Positions 5,534 to 16,228 of a stretch of DNA of 64,000 nt are shown in pieces; the stretch's first letter is position 1; every line of letters begins with the position of its first letter. Below the pieces are notes generated by a model. The model did no database searches. It was not told the origin of the DNA and was given only the letters and a program-made list of their open reading frames with translations. The stretch is taken from contig JBAYLD010000002.1 of the NCBI GenBank assembly GCA_041664265.1, positions 35,505-99,504 of the forward strand, written 5' to 3'. The position numbers and the translations under genes are program-made. The DNA is from Minisyncoccota bacterium. GTDB taxonomy: Bacteria > Patescibacteriota > Minisyncoccia > Phycocordibacterales > Phycocordibacteraceae.

Positions 5534-6205
5534 CTATATCCAATTGATTGGCGTTTGGCCGCGAGAAGCGAGGTAGGCGTTCGCCTTAGAGAAGTGCTTA
5601 GAGCCGAAGAAGCCAGAGGCGGCGGAGAAGGGCGAGGGGTGCGGCGCTTCGAGGACGAGATGTTTGGTGCGATCAATATGCGCTCCCTTCGCCTTCGCGT
5701 AGTTGCCCCAGAGCATGAAGACGAGATGCTCGCTCTCATCTCCGAGCGTGCGGATTACAGCGTCGGTAAATTGCTCCCAGCCGTGATTTTGATGCGAACC
5801 AGCGTTATGAGCACGAACAGTGAGCGTCGCGTTGAGCAACAAAACGCCCTGTTTTGCCCATCGCGATAGATCGCCGTTATTTTTTGTAGACACCGGGTGT
5901 CCACAATCACTTTCGATCTCTTTGAAGATGTTTTGTAGAGATGGAGGTACGGCAATTTTTTCATCCACTGCAAAAGCCAATCCATTCGCCTGCCCTATTC
6001 CGTGATACGGGTCCTGACCAAGAATCACCACTTTTACCTTATCAAAAGGACACAAGTCGAATGCGCGAAAAATGTTCTTAGGCGCGGGGTACACCTTCCC
6101 TTCTTTGTATTCACTCTTCACAAAGGCCGTGAGCTTTACGAAATATTCCTTTTCAAACTCGCCTCCCAAATGCTTCGCCCATAATGATTCTATCTTTACG
6201 GTCAT
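5534..6205 (-). CDS. ung: uracil-DNA glycosylase, family 1
   Basis: GQDPYH water-activating motif, HPSPFS, WAKQGVLLLN; start at MTVKIESLW with RBS AAAGGAG upstream. Confidence 0.85.
   Translation of the reverse strand: MTVKIESLWAKHLGGEFEKEYFVKLTAFVKSEYKEGKVYPAPKNIFRAFDLCPFDKVKVVILGQDPYHGIGQANGLAFAVDEKIAVPPSLQNIFKEIESDCGHPVSTKNNGDLSRWAKQGVLLLNATLTVRAHNAGSHQNHGWEQFTDAVIRTLGDESEHLVFMLWGNYAKAKGAHIDRTKHLVLEAPHPSPFSAASGFFGSKHFSKANAYLASRGQTPINWI
5885..5905. repeat. palindrome TGTAGACACCGGGTGTCCACA (family C) inside ung
   Basis: near-identical 20-mer at 48831-48851 (intergenic); variant GATGGACACTCCGTGTCCATC at 6215-6235. Confidence 0.7.
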
Positions 6206-6214
6206 ACTCCTTTT

Positions 6215-6235
6215 GATGGACACTCCGTGTCCATC
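6215..6235. repeat. palindrome GATGGACACTCCGTGTCCATC immediately upstream of ung RBS
   Basis: perfect 9-bp arms; lies between nuclease stop (6246) and ung start (6205). Confidence 0.6.
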
Positions 6236-6245
6236 ATTTTTTCGT

Positions 6246-7034
6246 TCATGTTCCTGCATTTTTCTTCTTATTTTCAGTATGTAGAGCGAGCAGTTTCTTC
6301 CCCGCCATGTCGCGGTACTGGCAATAGTCGCAGTCCGGATGTGCGTCGGGTATCGCGTCGCTGTCGAGGCATTTTTTTATATTCAAGAGCGTACGCTCTA
6401 TCCAAGAATCATCGCCCTCGTAGGGTATAAGCGTCAATTCAAAATTAAGGACACCGTCAAACGCCCCCCTGTCTTTGTCGGCATTCGCATAAACGAAATA
6501 GCCGGTGTTAGAAACCTTGAAGCCGCTTCTCCGGAAGAGCCATTGGTAGGTCTCCATCTGGCGCTTGTATCCCTCATGCCAGTCTTCGTCGAGGGATTCT
6601 ATCCGCGCGTCCTTACTGGTCGATTTGTAATCAACAATGATGAGCTCGCCGTCAGGCTTGACCCACACGTCATCTATCGCTCCCGATATCCGGAACCCTG
6701 TCGGCTCATGCGTAATTTCTATGCCTTTAAAGTTCTCGCGCCAGACATTCAGGTTCGCGTGTTCGAAAGGAATAGCGTCGAGCCCATAGGCCTGCATGAG
6801 CGGATGAGTCGTCGCCTCAGCTCGGTGGATATCAAACTCCTTTTTTAGCAGTGCATCAACGGCAGAGTTCAGGCTGAAGGGATAGCCGGGCGGTCGGGCG
6901 GTGCCGAGCTTGTTATCCAGATAAAAGCAACGCGGGCAGTCAATGAATAAGCTTATCTTCGACCGTGAGAGTCGCCAATTACTGCCGCCATAATTCCATC
7001 CGGGATTCCGATCCGGCTTGTAGTATTTGCTCAT
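6246..7034 (-). CDS. Cas4-like / RecB-family PD-(D/E)xK nuclease with 4 Cys (Fe-S), no CRISPR context
   Basis: motifs GAIDDVW, IVDYKST, QMETYQWL; N-terminal CPRC and C-terminal CDYC cysteine pairs. Confidence 0.6.
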   Translation of the reverse strand: MSKYYKPDRNPGWNYGGSNWRLSRSKISLFIDCPRCFYLDNKLGTARPPGYPFSLNSAVDALLKKEFDIHRAEATTHPLMQAYGLDAIPFEHANLNVWRENFKGIEITHEPTGFRISGAIDDVWVKPDGELIIVDYKSTSKDARIESLDEDWHEGYKRQMETYQWLFRRSGFKVSNTGYFVYANADKDRGAFDGVLNFELTLIPYEGDDSWIERTLLNIKKCLDSDAIPDAHPDCDYCQYRDMAGKKLLALHTENKKKNAGT

Positions 7035-7552
7035 GGCGTGGTTTTGAAATACGCGACCACGGATGCGCCGGTGTCAAAATCGACGTAGACGCTATTGACG
7101 GCGAAATCAAAGGTACCGTTTCCGTCATCGCGATACAGTTCAACGGCATATGATCGGCCCGGCTCGGTCGCCCGCAGAAGCTGCACAGGCACGGAGCTAC
7201 GAGGGCCATCTACGCGCGCGGCGCCAAGCACGTTCCCGAGGTTGCCGCTGGTTACCTCGCGCACGGCGACCCAGACACCCGGTGGCGGCACCGTGATCGA
7301 CTCGACCATAACCACGCTACCGGAGGATTGGTCTGCCACGGATACTGCGCCGCTCTTTTCTGTACCAAGGTTGGCGTCTTGTGTGCCGGAAAGAGGAGAG
7401 TCTGCTCCCCGCTGGTCGATAGGCAAAACAGGGAGAGAGAAGTTGCCGCTGAGGAAATAGGAGCCCGCGAGCAAGGCGCCGAGCATGATTCCGGCAACGA
7501 AGGAACCGACCGAGAAGCCGAAGGTACTGGTAGAGAAAGTGTTGCGCGTCAT
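7031..7552 (-). CDS. hypothetical membrane-anchored protein
   Basis: 173-aa ORF, N-terminal TM helix; 4-nt overlaps with both neighbours. Confidence 0.45.
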   Translation of the reverse strand: MTRNTFSTSTFGFSVGSFVAGIMLGALLAGSYFLSGNFSLPVLPIDQRGADSPLSGTQDANLGTEKSGAVSVADQSSGSVVMVESITVPPPGVWVAVREVTSGNLGNVLGAARVDGPRSSVPVQLLRATEPGRSYAVELYRDDGNGTFDFAVNSVYVDFDTGASVVAYFKTTP

Positions 7553-8418
7553 AGAGAAGAGCTGTTGTCCGCAGCACCAGGGAGCTCAAGGAGCCCATCG
7601 GCCTCTGCGAGGAGTTCGCCGATCCTCTCAGGTGACAAATGCAGCACGTCAAGTGCACGACGATCTTTCATAATAGTGTCGACCGCGATCACTCCCTGTT
7701 CGATAAGGAGCCGCTTCTCGGCGTGGGAAATACCGGTCAAGGTGGTGATCGGATACACTTTCGCGCGGCTCATGCGCATGAAGAGGCTGTTATCCGTCGG
7801 ATAGCCCCATCCGAGGAGTTCGACGCCCGCGCATTCGCCATACGCGATGGCTTCAGAGGTGAACTTAGTGTTCGTCACCAAGAGTCCACGGTCGATTGGA
7901 CACACGCGAGCTCCCTCGTTGCAGGAAAAAATGTCCTCGAAGCGGCTCTTCACATACAGGGCGACTTTCAGGTCAGTCTTGTAACTCGGGTCGTTATGAT
8001 ACTTCAACTCGGCGGCGAGATGGACGCCTTGTTCCGGATGCGATGCGTAGAGATCGATCTCGTGCATCACGCATCTTCCTTGCAGCAATTTGCGTGTCTC
8101 GACCTGCCATCCTTCTGCGCGATAGAGGTGTGAGACGAAGTCTTCAAATGGGTGACCGGTAGGCCCGAGCTCAAGAAGCGCACGTCGGAGCGCATAGCGG
8201 GCAGCGATCGGACGAGCCTCTTTGCGCAAGAGTGCGAAGGCGCGTGCATAAATCTCTCGCGAGGGAGCTCCCGGCACGACGGTGCTCGTGATTGCCTCGG
8301 CTATGCGTGCCGCGGTGTGTTCGCCTGCTCCTGCTCGTTTCAGAGAGATACCGAGGCGCACAGGATCAAAGATCTCGCTCGACCCATCGGCCTTAACGAT
8401 AGTTGGGAGAGGCGTCAT
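7549..8418 (-). CDS. ATP-cone domain fused to Mrr-like restriction-endonuclease (PD-(D/E)xK) domain
   Basis: IVKADGSSEIFDPVRLGISLKRAG ATP-cone start; HEIDLYA...AELKYH catalytic D...ExK; GLLVTNTKFTSEA Mrr C-terminal motif; start at MTPLPTIVK gives 4-nt overlap with upstream gene. Confidence 0.55.
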   Translation of the reverse strand: MTPLPTIVKADGSSEIFDPVRLGISLKRAGAGEHTAARIAEAITSTVVPGAPSREIYARAFALLRKEARPIAARYALRRALLELGPTGHPFEDFVSHLYRAEGWQVETRKLLQGRCVMHEIDLYASHPEQGVHLAAELKYHNDPSYKTDLKVALYVKSRFEDIFSCNEGARVCPIDRGLLVTNTKFTSEAIAYGECAGVELLGWGYPTDNSLFMRMSRAKVYPITTLTGISHAEKRLLIEQGVIAVDTIMKDRRALDVLHLSPERIGELLAEADGLLELPGAADNSSSL

Positions 8419-8825
8419 AGTCTGCTTGTCGTCGCTATACTCCCGTTCACTGTCGCGAATATCGGCAAATCGACAGGTGCAGAGATTGTTGCAGAGAATG
8501 TCGCGCGCGTTGGCACCTGCAAGCATACTCCTCCGTCATCTACAAGCGTGAGTGCGACTAAAATGCCGCTCTCTGATCCTTCGCCCGCCAGAGAAGCCTC
8601 GGCACCTACGCTTGTGCAGGCATTTGGGGCCTCGAGTGATCCGGTAATCGTGTGCACCCCTTTTTTAAAAGAATCGCGCAGGGCAACGGATGGCGTGTGT
8701 GTCACTTCGGCGCGCGAGAGTGGCGCCTGGGCAACGTCGCCCGTCCGCGGTACCGAGAATACGAAACTCACGATGAGAAAAAAAACGATGATGGCCGCGG
8801 CGATCCAGAGGCGTGTATGGCTCAT
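8415..8825 (-). CDS. hypothetical small secreted/membrane-anchored protein
   Basis: 136 aa, N-terminal hydrophobic segment LWIAAAIIVFFLIVSFVF. Confidence 0.4.
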   Translation of the reverse strand: MSHTRLWIAAAIIVFFLIVSFVFSVPRTGDVAQAPLSRAEVTHTPSVALRDSFKKGVHTITGSLEAPNACTSVGAEASLAGEGSESGILVALTLVDDGGVCLQVPTRATFSATISAPVDLPIFATVNGSIATTSRL

Positions 8826-9802
8826 GCGACAATAATACCACCACCGGCCAACTCGCCGCTATGACTTGCTTCGCCGGAAGCGCTGACGCGAGGCGAGTAA
8901 AAAACGATCGACTGGCCGGGCGCAGGGATATCGGGCAGCGACTGTGCGGGGATGAAGCAATCCCCTTCAACCCTTCCTTGTATGTGCGGACCGCGATAAC
9001 GGTACTGAGCCTCGGTGACGCGCGCCGACGCGGCAAACCAATTTGCATCGGTGAAGGAGATCTCATGCATCGGCGCGGATCGCGTCCTTGCGGTTCTGAT
9101 CTCTTTTTTTTCAACGTCCTTCCCGATTACATACCACACGTCATTCGATCCTTCTTTTCCGATGCGTTGGCCGATAGTGTACAAAAGCGCCGGGTTAGCA
9201 CTCCCCAATTCACGCAATAAAAATTCTTTGATGGAGACCGCACCGAGGAAGCAGACGCCCTGGCTGTCTTTCTTCTCTGCGACCGGCAGGTTGAATTTTT
9301 TTGCGAGCTTGCGTACGTCTTCTTTCTTCATGTTCCCTACCGGAAACAGTGTTGCGTCCACTATATCCTTGGGCACGGCCCAGAGGAAGTAGCTCTGGTC
9401 CTTTTCGCCCGCGCGATAATGCCCCATCGCGATCGCATCAGCGCCGGCATCCATCGCGAAGCGATAACATGCGCCGAACTTTACCTCCTTATTGCACATC
9501 ACATCGGGATTTGGTGTCCGACCGGAGCGATATTCTTCGAGCAGATATTCAACAACGCTTTTTTTATACTCCGCACTTGCGTCAAAAGTAAGGAATGGGA
9601 TCCGGAGCCGCGCCGCCACCCGCATCGCATCGCGGCGCTCTGTGGCCCAGGTACACGGCATCCCAGGCGGATACCAGCCTTTGATAAACACGCCTGTCAC
9701 GCGTGCGCCAGCCCTCTGCAAGAGCGCGGCAGACACCGCGGAGTCCACGCCTCCAGACAGGCCAACAAACACTTTTTTCCCGCGCACCTCTTTCATCTCC
9801 AT
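8822..9802 (-). CDS. mnmA: tRNA-specific 2-thiouridylase MnmA
   Basis: VFVGLSGGVDSAVSA PP-loop; FIKGWYP; CNKEVKFG; 326 aa. Confidence 0.85.
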   Translation of the reverse strand: MEMKEVRGKKVFVGLSGGVDSAVSAALLQRAGARVTGVFIKGWYPPGMPCTWATERRDAMRVAARLRIPFLTFDASAEYKKSVVEYLLEEYRSGRTPNPDVMCNKEVKFGACYRFAMDAGADAIAMGHYRAGEKDQSYFLWAVPKDIVDATLFPVGNMKKEDVRKLAKKFNLPVAEKKDSQGVCFLGAVSIKEFLLRELGSANPALLYTIGQRIGKEGSNDVWYVIGKDVEKKEIRTARTRSAPMHEISFTDANWFAASARVTEAQYRYRGPHIQGRVEGDCFIPAQSLPDIPAPGQSIVFYSPRVSASGEASHSGELAGGGIIVA

Positions 9803-12717: not shown

Positions 12718-13788
12718 TTATACTGCCGCGTAGCGGCCGTCTTTCATCCGTTTGAAGTAGCGCGAATCGTTCAAATTCACCAAGATGGTGTTGTCCTTCA
12801 CAAAACGAGCTTTCTTGACGTGCTTGATGATCTCGTCTTTCTTCATCGGGCCTTTCTCCTCAAGCGTCTCGCGAATAACGTCGCGCACAACGCCCGGCGT
12901 ATAGCCCCACTCGGTGAGCGCGTAGAGTCCGCGGCCGACGAGTACGAAACGAGGATCCTTGATGAGCTCGTTGTGCGTTGTCGCGACGTGCGCCTTCTTG
13001 GAGAAGAGGTTGCTGATCGCCTTCGAGACTTCAGAGAAGTGCATCGGAGCGCCGTGGCGCTTGATAGCGAGATAGGCGTAATCGCGGATGCCCTTGATAC
13101 GGATGGCAGGTGCGCTCATCTTGCCCCACTGGGCAAGCGGGTTCCTGCCGATATGCTTAGAGAGCGAGAGCCAGCGCTTCAAGACCTCCTCGTTCTTGTA
13201 GGCGTCGTTGACCGACTTGAGCTCATCAAGAAAGCGATCGAGGATCTCGGCTTCAGAGACGACCTCGTCATCCGGGAGCGACGCATACAGCTTCGAGAGC
13301 GCGTCATGGATATGTTTTGCGGCCGTGGCATCGACATGCCAGCGCGCGAGGAAGTCGTTTGTCTCGCGCTCGCGGAAGAACGCCGAGTCAACCATGAGGA
13401 GGAAGCGGAATCGGTTGCGGCTCTTCTCATCCTTCCCGAGTGCGGAAAGAAGCGTTTCTTCGGGCACGATGGCGCCGAGCGAGTCAATGTAGCGTGCGAG
13501 ATCCTCAAACGCTCCCTGCGATTCTTTAAAAATCTTGCTCGCGCGAATCGCGTCGAGTCCGGCAGCCTCGATCTGGCGCACGCGCTCGCGGGTGATGCTC
13601 GAGCGATCGCCGATCGCTTCAAGTGTCTCGCGTTCGGCGTTCGTGCCGAGGCCAAAACGGCGCACCAAAACGTCGCGCGCGCGTTCTGGAGCGGCGGCGA
13701 GGAGCCGCTTCACCAGCGCAGCGCTATCAAAGGAAAAGGAGGCTGCGGCAATAGCCGAAGATTTCCCGATCTTTTTAGTTTTGGTCAT
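12718..13788 (-). CDS. sigma-70 region-4-like HTH DNA-binding protein
   Basis: RARDVLVRRFGL...ETLEAIGDRSSITRERVRQIEAAGL is a sigma region 4 HTH; start taken at MTKTKKIG (alternative MKKMTK at 13797). Confidence 0.5.
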   Translation of the reverse strand: MTKTKKIGKSSAIAAASFSFDSAALVKRLLAAAPERARDVLVRRFGLGTNAERETLEAIGDRSSITRERVRQIEAAGLDAIRASKIFKESQGAFEDLARYIDSLGAIVPEETLLSALGKDEKSRNRFRFLLMVDSAFFRERETNDFLARWHVDATAAKHIHDALSKLYASLPDDEVVSEAEILDRFLDELKSVNDAYKNEEVLKRWLSLSKHIGRNPLAQWGKMSAPAIRIKGIRDYAYLAIKRHGAPMHFSEVSKAISNLFSKKAHVATTHNELIKDPRFVLVGRGLYALTEWGYTPGVVRDVIRETLEEKGPMKKDEIIKHVKKARFVKDNTILVNLNDSRYFKRMKDGRYAAV

Positions 13789-13855
13789 TTTTTTCATGTG
13801 GTGTAATTTATAGCAAACGCTTAATAAAGAGTCAACCCCTCTGTCAATAGCTGGA

Positions 13856-16228
13856 CTATACCACAAGATTCAGGATCTTACCCGGGACGTAGACGACCCG
13901 CTTTGGCTCCTGCCCGCCGAGTGCTGCAGCGACTGTCGGGATCTTCAGTGCCTCAGCCGTTACTGCCTCCTCAGAGGCGTCCTGTGCGAGCGTGACCGAG
14001 CCACGACGCTTGCCGTTCACCTGTACGATGACTTCTTTTTCGCTCGCTACTATTACAACGGCTGCTGGCCATACCTGTTTGTGCACGCTCCCTTCCCCAC
14101 CGAGTTTTTCCCACAAATCTTCTGCGAGGTGCGGGGCGAAGGGCGCGAGCATAATCACTAGCTGAGCGAGAGTATCTTTGGAAATACTCTCCTGTTTCTC
14201 CAATTCGTTTACAAGAATCATGAGCGTTGAAATGCTGGTATTGAATTTAAAGCGATCACCGTCCTGCGCGACCTTCACGCTCGTGCGTGCGAGTGCTTGC
14301 TGTATTTCTGGACTTACGAAGTCCTTACATTCGGTTCCCGTATCTAGGGACTTCGTAAGTCCCTCTATATTCCGGTCCACGAGGCGATCAATTCGTTCCA
14401 AAAACTTCCGCATCGCAGCAACACCGTCGAGATTCCAGGGGTAGCTCCCTGGCTCGTTGTAAGGACCGATGAAGGCGAGATAGATTCGCACCGCATCGGC
14501 GCCATGCTTCTGCACAAACTCATCCGGATTAATGACATTCCCTTTTGACTTGCTCATCTTAGCTCCGTCGGGACCCATAATGAGCCCGCGATTAAAGCGC
14601 TCGGTGAATGGCTCTTCGACCGGCACGAGTGCGAGATCATAGAGCGCCTGCGTGAAGAAGCGCGCATAGAGTAGGTGCATCGTGGTGTGTTCGCTCCCGC
14701 CCGAATAGCGATTGATCGGCAGCCACTTTTTCATCAACTCAGTATCAGAAAAAGCATTTGAATCTTTGGGGTCAAGATAGCGCAAGAAATACCACGAAGA
14801 ATCCACGAACGTATCGAGCGTGTCATACTCTGGCGTCCAACCCTCGCCGAAGATGCGCGTGACGCGCTCCTGCAATTCTTTAGATGAGGCGAGGGGCGAC
14901 TTGCCGGTGGGAGTGAAGTCCGCATCAGTCGGCAGGAGCCAGGGCAGGTGTTCGGCCGGTATCGCGTGTGGAGTACCCTCCGGATCGTAGACAATCGGTA
15001 TCGGGCATCCCCAATATCTCTGCCGGCTCACGAGCCAATCGCGCAGGCGATATTGTGTCGCCTTCTCGCCCCCGATGCTCGCGACGGTATCCCAATCAAC
15101 AAATTCAGCCTCACGTATCGGCAGATTGAACTTCTCCGCGAATTCACGGTCCCGTTCATCATATGCAGGGACAGCCATGATACCACCGGTGCCATACGAA
15201 CCTAGGACGTAGTCGGCGACGTAAATTGGAATCTCTTCTTTTGTCGCTGGATTGACTGCCATGACACCCTCCAACTTCACGCCCGTCTTCTCTTTATTCT
15301 CACTCCGCTCCCGCTCAGTCTTCTTCTTGGTCGCTTCCACATATGCCTCAACTTCTTTCGCATTCATGAGGGGTTTACGAAACCCTTCATCTTGAAGCAG
15401 TGAATGCTCCGGAGCAAGCACGAGGTACGTCGCGCCGAAGATCGTATCGGGTCTAGTTGTAAACACTTCGATATACGGACTTACGATGTCCGTAGATTCA
15501 GAATCGGATGTTCTAACATTGAATTTTATCTTCGCACCTTCTGACTTCCCTATCCAGGCTCTCTGCGCCTCTTTAATCTCTTCGCGCCACGGGAGCGTGT
15601 CGAGCCCTGTGAGGAGCCGCTCAGCATGCTGGGTTATTTTTAAGAACCACTGCGTCAAACGTTTTTCTTCAACCTCTGTGCCGCAGCGCTCGCAGCAGCC
15701 GTCAAGTACCTGTTCATTAGCGAGTACGGTCAAACACTTCGGACACCATTTCACCGCTGCCTCTCGTCGCTCAGCGAGTCCGTGCTCAAAGAGCTTCGCG
15801 AAGAGCCACTGCGTCCACTGGTAATAGCTCGGCTCACAGGTCACCACTTCTTTACTCCAATCAAACGATGCGCCCATAGAGGCAAGCTGCTCGCGCATGC
15901 GTGTCATATTGGCGTAGGTCCACGCCTTAGGGTCCTCGCCATGCTTCATCGCCGCGTTCTCAGCCGGGAGTCCGAAGGCGTCAAAGCCGATCGGGAAGAG
16001 GACATTCTTCCCTTGTGCGCGCAGGAGGCGCGCATAGATATCGGTTACCGCGAAGGCATACCAATGGCCGATGTGCAGATCTCCCGATGGGTACGGGAAT
16101 TCAACAAGGAGGTAATACGGCTCCTTACCGCCAGCTGGCGGATCATCAGAGAGATCGGCACGATATAGATCAAGCTCCGCCCACTTCGCTTGGACTTTTT
16201 TTTCTATTTCTCGGTGGTCATACGCCAT
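13856..16228 (-). CDS. leuS: leucyl-tRNA synthetase
   Basis: HIGH motif PYPSGDLHIGHW, KMSKS, editing and anticodon-binding regions; 790 aa. Confidence 0.9.
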   Translation of the reverse strand: MAYDHREIEKKVQAKWAELDLYRADLSDDPPAGGKEPYYLLVEFPYPSGDLHIGHWYAFAVTDIYARLLRAQGKNVLFPIGFDAFGLPAENAAMKHGEDPKAWTYANMTRMREQLASMGASFDWSKEVVTCEPSYYQWTQWLFAKLFEHGLAERREAAVKWCPKCLTVLANEQVLDGCCERCGTEVEEKRLTQWFLKITQHAERLLTGLDTLPWREEIKEAQRAWIGKSEGAKIKFNVRTSDSESTDIVSPYIEVFTTRPDTIFGATYLVLAPEHSLLQDEGFRKPLMNAKEVEAYVEATKKKTERERSENKEKTGVKLEGVMAVNPATKEEIPIYVADYVLGSYGTGGIMAVPAYDERDREFAEKFNLPIREAEFVDWDTVASIGGEKATQYRLRDWLVSRQRYWGCPIPIVYDPEGTPHAIPAEHLPWLLPTDADFTPTGKSPLASSKELQERVTRIFGEGWTPEYDTLDTFVDSSWYFLRYLDPKDSNAFSDTELMKKWLPINRYSGGSEHTTMHLLYARFFTQALYDLALVPVEEPFTERFNRGLIMGPDGAKMSKSKGNVINPDEFVQKHGADAVRIYLAFIGPYNEPGSYPWNLDGVAAMRKFLERIDRLVDRNIEGLTKSLDTGTECKDFVSPEIQQALARTSVKVAQDGDRFKFNTSISTLMILVNELEKQESISKDTLAQLVIMLAPFAPHLAEDLWEKLGGEGSVHKQVWPAAVVIVASEKEVIVQVNGKRRGSVTLAQDASEEAVTAEALKIPTVAAALGGQEPKRVVYVPGKILNLVV
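14310..14363. repeat. 54-bp family-A palindromic element in frame in leuS (translated GLTKSLDTGTECKDFVSP)
   Basis: GGACTTACGAAGTCC...GGACTTCGTAAGTCCC; shares GAATGTAAGGACTTCG with uvrA copy at 63855-63876. Confidence 0.8.
15475..15493. repeat. 19-bp family-A half element ACGGACTTACGATGTCCGT in frame in leuS (translated TDIVSPY)
   Basis: same GGACATCGTAAGTCC core and same DIVSP peptide as alaS copy. Confidence 0.75.

Follow-up and report, generated by a model that had tools for sequence, protein, structure and literature searches.

The stretch of DNA analysed here (the window, 64,000 nt of the Minisyncoccota contig JBAYLD010000002.1) carries, between positions 5534 and 9802, a block of six open reading frames (ORFs), all of them on the minus strand, which encode an MnmA-like protein, a 136-aa protein (Hyp136), a 289-aa predicted nuclease with an N-terminal ATP-cone, a DUF7282 protein, a four-Cys PD-(D/E)XK nuclease, and the uracil-DNA glycosylase Ung. 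This locus is most probably a lineage-specific housekeeping cluster, and neither a single functional module nor a defence module. We consider it probable that these genes constitute a co-transcribed housekeeping run in a compact genome of the Kaiserbacteria type (Paceibacteria, Candidate Phyla Radiation or CPR), probably translationally coupled and formed by two separable sub-blocks, one of which would include a nuclease likely gated by ATP/dATP. The initial annotation had instead read the six genes as one nucleotide-sensing module for surveillance or defence, a reading that is not supported by the comparison with other genomes, since the gene order is kept in one clade only, the nucleases are separable, and no defence signature was found.

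The first five genes are joined by an ATGA sequence at all four of their junctions (8822-8825, 8415-8418, 7549-7552, and 7031-7034), just as the initial annotation had described, and ung follows after a hairpin, also as described, with its start 40 nt past the stop of the PD-(D/E)XK gene and its own AAGGAG ribosome-binding site. According to a rough gene call, the window contains 48 co-directional neighbour pairs, seven of which could have an ATGA overlap. Four of these seven are the consecutive pairs of this run, from which we conclude that the clustering is real and above the genomic background; a crude estimate of the chance of such a four-junction run, (7/48)^4 x ~45 positions, gives ~0.02. 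Co-transcription and translational coupling of the run, the latter already proposed in the annotation, are plausible.

In a scan of the GTDB species genomes, 213 relatives were found, the best 80 of which (L001-L080), all of them Kaiserbacteria/Paceibacteria-type metagenome-assembled genomes (MAGs), were compared. The order hyp459-mltG-mnmA-hyp136-nuclease-(DUF7282)-PDDEXK-ung is kept in nearly all of them, usually with alaS further downstream, and hyp136 is present in 78 and DUF7282 in 57 of the 80 loci. The first three overlaps of the run recur in most orthologous loci: mnmA and hyp136 overlap by 4 nt in 63 out of 76, hyp136 and the nuclease by 4 nt in 70 out of 78, and the nuclease and DUF7282 by 4 nt in 28 and by 1 nt in 22 out of 57 (50/57 together). 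DUF7282 and PDDEXK are separated by a gap of 0-30 nt in 49 out of 57 loci, and the distance from PDDEXK to ung exceeds 150 nt in 40 out of 64, a wide gap due to the MGMT-like gene (~85 aa, with a DNA_binding_1 domain and a PCHR motif) that sits between them in 40 of the 80 relatives. The neighbourhood, whose conservation had been put forward as a check on the module, is thus kept within this 80-species clade, but in none of the 87 distant loci described below. Moreover, as the six genes lie inside a longer vertically syntenic block, their order alone cannot indicate functional linkage.

Two sub-blocks can be distinguished within this order. Sub-block A comprises mnmA, hyp136, the ATP-cone nuclease, and DUF7282, with stop/start overlaps that are conserved across the clade. 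Sub-block B is a DNA-repair group that contains the four-Cys PD-(D/E)XK nuclease and ung, with the MGMT-like gene as a further member in roughly half of the relatives. The distance between the two nucleases increases to 1.4-3.3 kb in 9 of 76 relatives, and in both loci that were read, L004 (8826-10094) and L029 (8868-12028), the insert contains an opposite-strand Mur-ligase-like gene, accompanied in L029 by an asparagine-synthase-like gene, which puts the two nucleases into separate transcription units. An MgtC gene and others intervene between them at loci L171 and L172, and in the latter ung is on the opposite strand. Given these inserts, co-transcription of the two nucleases is not obligatory. 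The idea of a single module is further weakened by the interruption of the step from PDDEXK to ung in most relatives, and by the fact that two of the overlapped genes, hyp136 and DUF7282, encode membrane-anchored proteins without any link to nucleic acids. As a side observation in these two Kaiserbacteria-like genomes, the MgtC-family gene, which is related to cation transport, stands straight after the ATP-cone nuclease in L171 (6379-6864) and straight after DUF7282 in L172 (3308-3817).

The 289-aa protein of sub-block A combines an ATP-cone, an Mrr-like nuclease domain, and an AF1548-like C-terminal domain, which confirms the two domain calls of the initial annotation. Taken on its own, the window protein matches Mrr_cat at 21.6 bits against a cutoff of 21, and Pfam ATP-cone (PF03477) at a sub-threshold 14.8 bits against 25.8. 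In a family alignment of 107 sequences, each 30-42% identical to the window protein, the ATP-cone is detected in 95 members (E <= 1e-3), Mrr_cat in 95, and AF1548-like_C (PF22357) in 56. Residues E120, D122, E137, and K139 are invariant across these 107 sequences, and judging from them the catalytic D-ExK triad of the predicted nuclease is intact. Residues 94-275 match the sequence of AF1548 (PDB 1Y88) with E = 1.6e-20. The AlphaFold2 model built from the 107-sequence alignment reaches a pLDDT of 95.5 and was used in place of one from a shallow 20-sequence alignment, which was poor (pLDDT 63). When searched with Foldseek, this model matches 1Y88 (E = 7.5e-14, TM 0.76 on target), its N-terminal 84 residues superimpose on the ATP-cone of NrdR (root-mean-square deviation 1.8 Å, probability 1.00) and match many cones of ribonucleotide reductases (RNRs) too, and its nuclease domain matches those of MspJI and AspBHI. 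Likewise, the family profile aligns the ATP-cone with residues 50-127 of NrdR, and the C-terminal domain with residues 116-196 of 1Y88. Within the cone, K9, F17, and K/R21 are conserved, and position 10 is Ala. Besides the nuclease domain, profiles and Foldseek detected only the ATP-cone and AF1548-like_C, and no domain for reading modified DNA.

For this protein we prefer the 289-aa start, because of the lengths of its orthologues (279-289 aa), their invariant M1, and the ATGA junction with the preceding gene. The NCBI protein model (window 7549-8526), named 'ATPase', is 325 aa long, which makes it 36 codons too long at the start and overlapping with hyp136.

When the 80 species are compared with the window proteins, median identities amount to 75.7% for the ATP-cone nuclease, 75.5% for ung, 65.5% for mnmA (75 loci), 64.6% for alaS, and 53.7% for PDDEXK, so that the nuclease equals ung, the best-conserved gene of the block, in its conservation and stands above AlaRS (alanyl-tRNA synthetase). 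Defence genes typically diversify, and the level of purifying selection suggested by these sequences is more in keeping with a core function of the cell than with immunity.

According to the defence reading, the six genes would work as one nucleotide-pool-sensing surveillance or anti-phage module, where the cone would sense the depletion or imbalance of (deoxy)nucleoside triphosphates, (d)NTPs, during infection, and the ATP-cone/Mrr protein, the Cas4-like nuclease, and Ung would destroy foreign DNA, for instance uracil-containing DNA. This proposal draws on the coincidence of two PD-(D/E)XK nucleases and ung within one overlapping run, on an Mrr-type fold that is common to the type IV enzymes MspJI and AspBHI, and on the order kept in 80 related genomes. 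However, the kept order reflects the general synteny of one clade, whose nucleases can be set apart by opposite-strand genes, and a tblastn search of the 87 distant loci found no homologue of PDDEXK, ung, mnmA, hyp136, or DUF7282 within 6 kb of the ATP-cone nuclease, where different partners recur instead. The nuclease has no match in PADLOC, in phage records, or in IMG/VR viral contigs, and a search of BFVD viral folds returned domain-level matches only. Contrary to type IV restriction systems, which are recognised by a fused modified-DNA recognition domain and by a patchy distribution in defence islands or mobile contexts, this protein has no such reader, is syntenic in 80 species, and is flanked by housekeeping genes; the neighbours comprise AlaRS, LeuRS (leucyl-tRNA synthetase), an M16 peptidase, a NUDIX protein, YceG, and a sigma-like protein. 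Considering all this, together with the conservation of the nuclease at the level of ung, we regard the defence module as highly improbable.

Judging from sequence, the most likely function of the 289-aa protein is that of a housekeeping nuclease gated by ATP/dATP. The ATP-cone would bind ATP and/or dATP, and the bound nucleotide would switch the nuclease on or off, probably by means of oligomerisation, by analogy with RNR and NrdR. Nucleic-acid cleavage would in this way follow the cellular adenylate/dNTP state, and would serve turnover, repair, or nucleotide salvage, but not the restriction of foreign DNA. Several points weigh against this interpretation and against the housekeeping reading of the locus. 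The canonical motif of the ATP-cone is a K-R/K basic pair, and the presence of K9-A10 in this protein means that the second basic residue is replaced by Ala. Nucleotide gating by the putative ATP-cone is a prediction from sequence and structure. In addition, a plain housekeeping nuclease does not explain why its coupling with mnmA and a membrane-anchored protein is conserved, and the 80 loci belong to one clade, whose synteny says little about function either way. Finally, the strong conservation of the gene and its synteny on the chromosome render a role in defence improbable, short of a formal exclusion.

The family of the ATP-cone nuclease extends well beyond Kaiserbacteria, with 460 clusters at 50% identity (E <= 1e-30); its members occur, among other groups, in Bacteroidota, Chlamydiota, and other CPR. 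Of the 150 clusters listed, nearly all are full-length (275-290 aa). We studied 87 distant loci, 80 of which are metagenome loci retrieved with Bacteroidota-type patterns and represent one subfamily, hence a biased sampling; the patterns come from a 16-sequence sub-alignment of the Bacteroidota type, the 107-sequence alignment being too diverse for them. A β-CASP/RMMBL hydrolase is encoded in 23 of the 87 loci, being the next gene downstream in 15, and a P-type ATPase in 28, being the next gene downstream in 14, with an overlap with the nuclease stop in 13 of these. Other partners are AAA_28 proteins (12 loci), a TIGR02645 phosphorylase (9), and a PRK07199-type phosphoribosyl pyrophosphate (PRPP) synthetase (8), and further neighbours include Usp proteins, copper and heavy-metal genes, superoxide dismutase, and type-II glyceraldehyde-3-phosphate dehydrogenase. 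The β-CASP hydrolase, the phosphorylase, and the PRPP synthetase occur all together in 7 loci.

These associations define a four-gene cassette, consisting of the ATP-cone/Mrr nuclease, the β-CASP/RMMBL hydrolase, an archaeal-type TIGR02645 enzyme of the thymidine/AMP-phosphorylase family, and the PRPP synthetase (PRK07199), on which we found no literature. The cassette is conserved in unrelated phyla. It is located on plasmids of Pontibacter actiniarum (NZ_CP021236, L173 1972-6597) and Criblamydia sequanensis (NZ_LK031773, L174 6995-11602), where the latter copy adjoins genes for a P-type ATPase, a phosphoketolase, GlgP, and an acetate kinase. It is also present in L085, L123, and L144. Its composition suggests a breakdown of nucleic acids that feeds nucleotide salvage.

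This brings in a more specific reading, in which the nuclease would be the gated entry step of salvage or turnover, cutting imported or endogenous DNA/RNA according to adenylate/dNTP levels, as a core gene in Kaiserbacteria and elsewhere alongside a β-CASP exonuclease, a PRPP synthetase, and an enzyme of the AMP/thymidine-phosphorylase family. De novo synthesis of nucleotides is generally missing from CPR bacteria, which makes salvage an attractive reason for the conservation of the nuclease in Kaiserbacteria, where it is very high. The plasmid-borne cassettes, the recurrence of its members at the distant loci, and the role of ATP-cones in RNR and NrdR as sensors of dNTP homeostasis would also agree with it. 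However, neither the 64-kb window nor any of the 80 Kaiserbacteria loci contains a cassette partner (β-CASP, phosphorylase, PRPP synthetase), and the conserved overlaps with mnmA and a membrane-anchored protein in this clade are left unexplained, as is the P-type ATPase, a partner that is equally frequent elsewhere. The bias of the distant sample towards one Bacteroidota-type subfamily also counts against it, and we consider this reading rather unlikely as it stands.

Another possibility is that the nuclease fold does not cut DNA but serves as an accessory factor, either regulatory or associated with the membrane, such as a partner that senses ATP for P-type ATPases or membrane proteins, with Hyp136 and the DUF7282 protein as its partners in Kaiserbacteria. 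Start/stop overlaps with P-type ATPases do recur in distant lineages (L084, L085, L168, and L170), in L171 and L172 an MgtC gene comes after the nuclease or after DUF7282, and in Kaiserbacteria a gene for a membrane-anchored protein lies on either side of the nuclease gene, with overlaps that are conserved. Nevertheless, the family-wide invariance of E120, D122, E137, and K139 argues for a working nuclease, and AF1548 and its C-terminal helical domain look nucleic-acid-binding, so we give this explanation very little credit. The pairs, each formed by the nuclease gene and a cation/heavy-metal ATPase gene that overlap from stop to start, lie at 6001-9478 in L084, 6001-9413 in L085, 6001-9104 in L168, and 3428-6834 in L170, and they are found in copper/metal loci with HMA, CsoR, multicopper oxidase, and YHS genes. 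The window itself contains no gene for a P-type ATPase, MgtC, or β-CASP, for which reason a link of this kind inside it was considered and rejected.

A broader proposal, which we put forward tentatively and hold to be doubtful, is that the family consists of unstudied adenylate/dATP-gated nucleases that couple cleavage to the nucleotide or energy state of the cell, being a near-universal core gene in Kaiserbacteria, translationally coupled to mnmA and a membrane-anchored partner, and wired in Bacteroidota, Chlamydiota, and other CPR to the β-CASP/phosphorylase/PRPP-synthetase cassettes and to P-type ATPases. If such a family with those couplings exists, it would represent a previously undescribed stress or salvage pathway.

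The coordinates of the genes, of the domains of the 289-aa protein, and of the spacer hairpin are collected in Table 1.

Table 1. Features of the six-gene block (window coordinates).
Feature	Position	Strand	Remarks
mnmA-like	8822-9802	-	326 aa; opens the overlapping run
hyp136	8415-8825	-	136 aa; N-terminal hydrophobic anchor; no family
ATP-cone nuclease	7549-8418	-	289 aa; start at the 37th codon of the longest ORF
ATP-cone domain of the 289-aa protein	8164-8418	-	aa ~1-85
Mrr-like PD-(D/E)XK domain of the 289-aa protein	7804-8163	-	aa ~86-205; D122, E137, K139 predicted catalytic
AF1548-like C-terminal helical domain of the 289-aa protein	7579-7803	-	aa ~206-280
DUF7282 protein	7031-7552	-	173 aa; N-terminal hydrophobic anchor
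Four-Cys RecB/Cas4-like PD-(D/E)XK nuclease	6246-7034	-	262 aa
Hairpin	6214-6236	-	10-bp stem and 3-nt loop; in the PD-(D/E)XK-ung spacer
ung, family-1 uracil-DNA glycosylase	5534-6205	-	223 aa; ATG at 6205, preceded by AAGGAG

Within sub-block B, the 262-aa protein matches PDDEXK_1 (5.2e-17), and in 22 of its homologues C33, C36, C235, C238, D122, D135, K137, Q159, and Y163 are invariant. By its sequence, it is a RecB-family nuclease with a putative CxxC...CxxC metal site. The canonical Cas4/AddB cysteines are one N-terminal and three C-terminal (C...CxxCx5C), an arrangement of which CxxC...CxxC is a variant. Of the Cas4-like Fe-S nuclease in the initial annotation, what stands is a four-Cys RecB-type protein with invariant cysteines; an assignment as Cas4 proper was rejected, since the score with Cas4 TIGR00372 (37.8 bits) falls under the cutoff of 65 and there is no CRISPR-like array. 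The PADLOC Cas4 models match with E = 3e-11 to 1e-3 only, a PDB sequence search gave no meaningful match, and most of the more than 8000 homologues of this protein are named PD-(D/E)XK nuclease family protein. As for the statement that no CRISPR lies nearby, Tandem Repeats Finder agrees with it, detecting in the 64 kb one 18-nt x 2.7 repeat and nothing like a CRISPR array; the adjoining genes are DUF7282 and ung, and not cas1/cas2, the scan for cas genes being limited to these neighbours and not extended further off in the window.

Two divergent types of this PD-(D/E)XK nuclease occupy the same syntenic position among L001-L080. Identity is 61-85% for the window type, which is that of L028, L017, L040, L058, L062, L071, and L075, and 50-57% for the majority type, even though many matches of 70-91% identity exist in the protein database. 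This may reflect a xenologous replacement.

The identity of ung given at the outset is secure, with 319.7 bits against a cutoff of 223 for NF003589, 282 against 186 for TIGR00628, and 3.9e-17 for PF03167. The MGMT-like gene is missing from the PDDEXK-ung interval of the window; examples of it are found at 7876-8136 in L171, 8308-8556 in L172, and 10157-10408 in L005. PDDEXK, the MGMT-like gene, and ung together suggest a cluster for the repair of base damage.

The identification of mnmA is probably right as well, the protein matching PF03054 (tRNA_Me_trans) with 3.4e-59. As its score with the NCBIfam MnmA model NF001138 (260.1 bits) lies just short of the 284-bit cutoff, it is probably a genuine MnmA, tRNA 2-thiouridine(34) synthase, although divergent or shortened. 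Hyp136 has no match in Pfam, NCBIfam, or PADLOC, the 173-aa protein matches DUF7282 (PF23951, 1.7e-9), and no relation between the two was detectable when they were compared. In a Wolfebacteria MAG (L087 4511-6870), the gene that overlaps the start of the ATP-cone nuclease by 4 nt encodes a 497-aa cysteine desulfurase (Aminotran_5), a type of enzyme that supplies sulfur to MnmA; in Kaiserbacteria, the coupled upstream genes are mnmA and hyp136. This overlap could be fortuitous, or it could point to a connection with tRNA thiolation.

The 61 nt around the spacer hairpin fold with -15.6 kcal/mol (z = -3.55), and none of 200 shuffled sequences folds as well. On the mRNA strand no U-tract follows the hairpin, reason why it is not a canonical terminator on that strand, and its role as intrinsic terminator of the minus-strand operon was rejected. 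On the plus strand the hairpin continues with the T-run TTTTTTCGTT, in a terminator-like arrangement for a plus-strand transcript, and no plus-strand gene ends at it. Upstream of the syntenic block, positions 12718-13866 of the window encode a 382-aa protein with Sigma70_r4 and HARE-HTH domains, the latter just under the Pfam cutoff, and in L171 the same gene precedes hyp459 and YceG.

When compared with known systems, the 289-aa protein is closest in its nuclease and C-terminal helical domains, including the D/E-x-K residues, to AF1548 from Archaeoglobus fulgidus (Mrr_cat + AF1548-like_C family), a structural-genomics entry for which a paper on GOS (Global Ocean Sampling) predicted a restriction endonuclease from the structure. 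However, the AF1548 chain has 199 residues and no ATP-cone, and the function of both proteins is a prediction from structure and sequence. The cone itself has the fold of those of NrdR and the RNRs (NrdA, NrdD, NrdB), whose conserved residues K, E, F, and K it aligns with, whereas its output would be a PD-(D/E)XK nuclease instead of a Zn-ribbon DNA binder or a reductase, and the K-R/K motif contains an Ala. The type IV Mrr/MspJI enzymes share the catalytic fold and motif, but the window nuclease lacks their winged-helix or SRA-like reader, and is conserved and syntenic, outside any defence island and without a PADLOC match. For its part, the 262-aa protein resembles the Cas4/AddB-type Fe-S nucleases in PDDEXK_1, the D...D-x-K and Q-x3-Y motifs, and the four Cys that bracket the core, and departs from them in the CxxC...CxxC spacing, the sub-cutoff score, the absence of an array in 64 kb, and the adjoining MGMT-like gene and ung in relatives. 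The category that fits the locus best is the mixed-function housekeeping gene string, as in the uber-operons and mixed strings of reduced genomes, where co-directional, overlapping genes for tRNA modification, envelope, and repair are likewise kept by descent.

The architecture of the ATP-cone nuclease is already in databases, in the form of Pfam domains, the NCBI name 'ATP cone domain-containing protein', and the entry 1Y88, although our literature search revealed neither experiments nor comparative work on the fusion of an ATP-cone with a nuclease or Mrr domain, nor on salvage nucleases of Kaiserbacteria, the one relevant text being the above prediction for AF1548. The locus is a new member of a known, uncharacterised family in an ordinary housekeeping string. 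That the defence reading is not upheld spares follow-up effort, and what remains of value is the protein family itself, which is well delimited, has a confident structural model, and joins the ATP-cone, a classic allosteric sensor for the supply of dNTPs, to an intact predicted nuclease. Its repeated association with P-type ATPases and with the four-gene cassette provides a lead that is testable in the cultivable Pontibacter actiniarum. If the cone gates cleavage, this would be a new output for ATP-cone signalling, and it could bear on how nucleic-acid turnover is controlled in CPR bacteria that depend on salvaged nucleotides.

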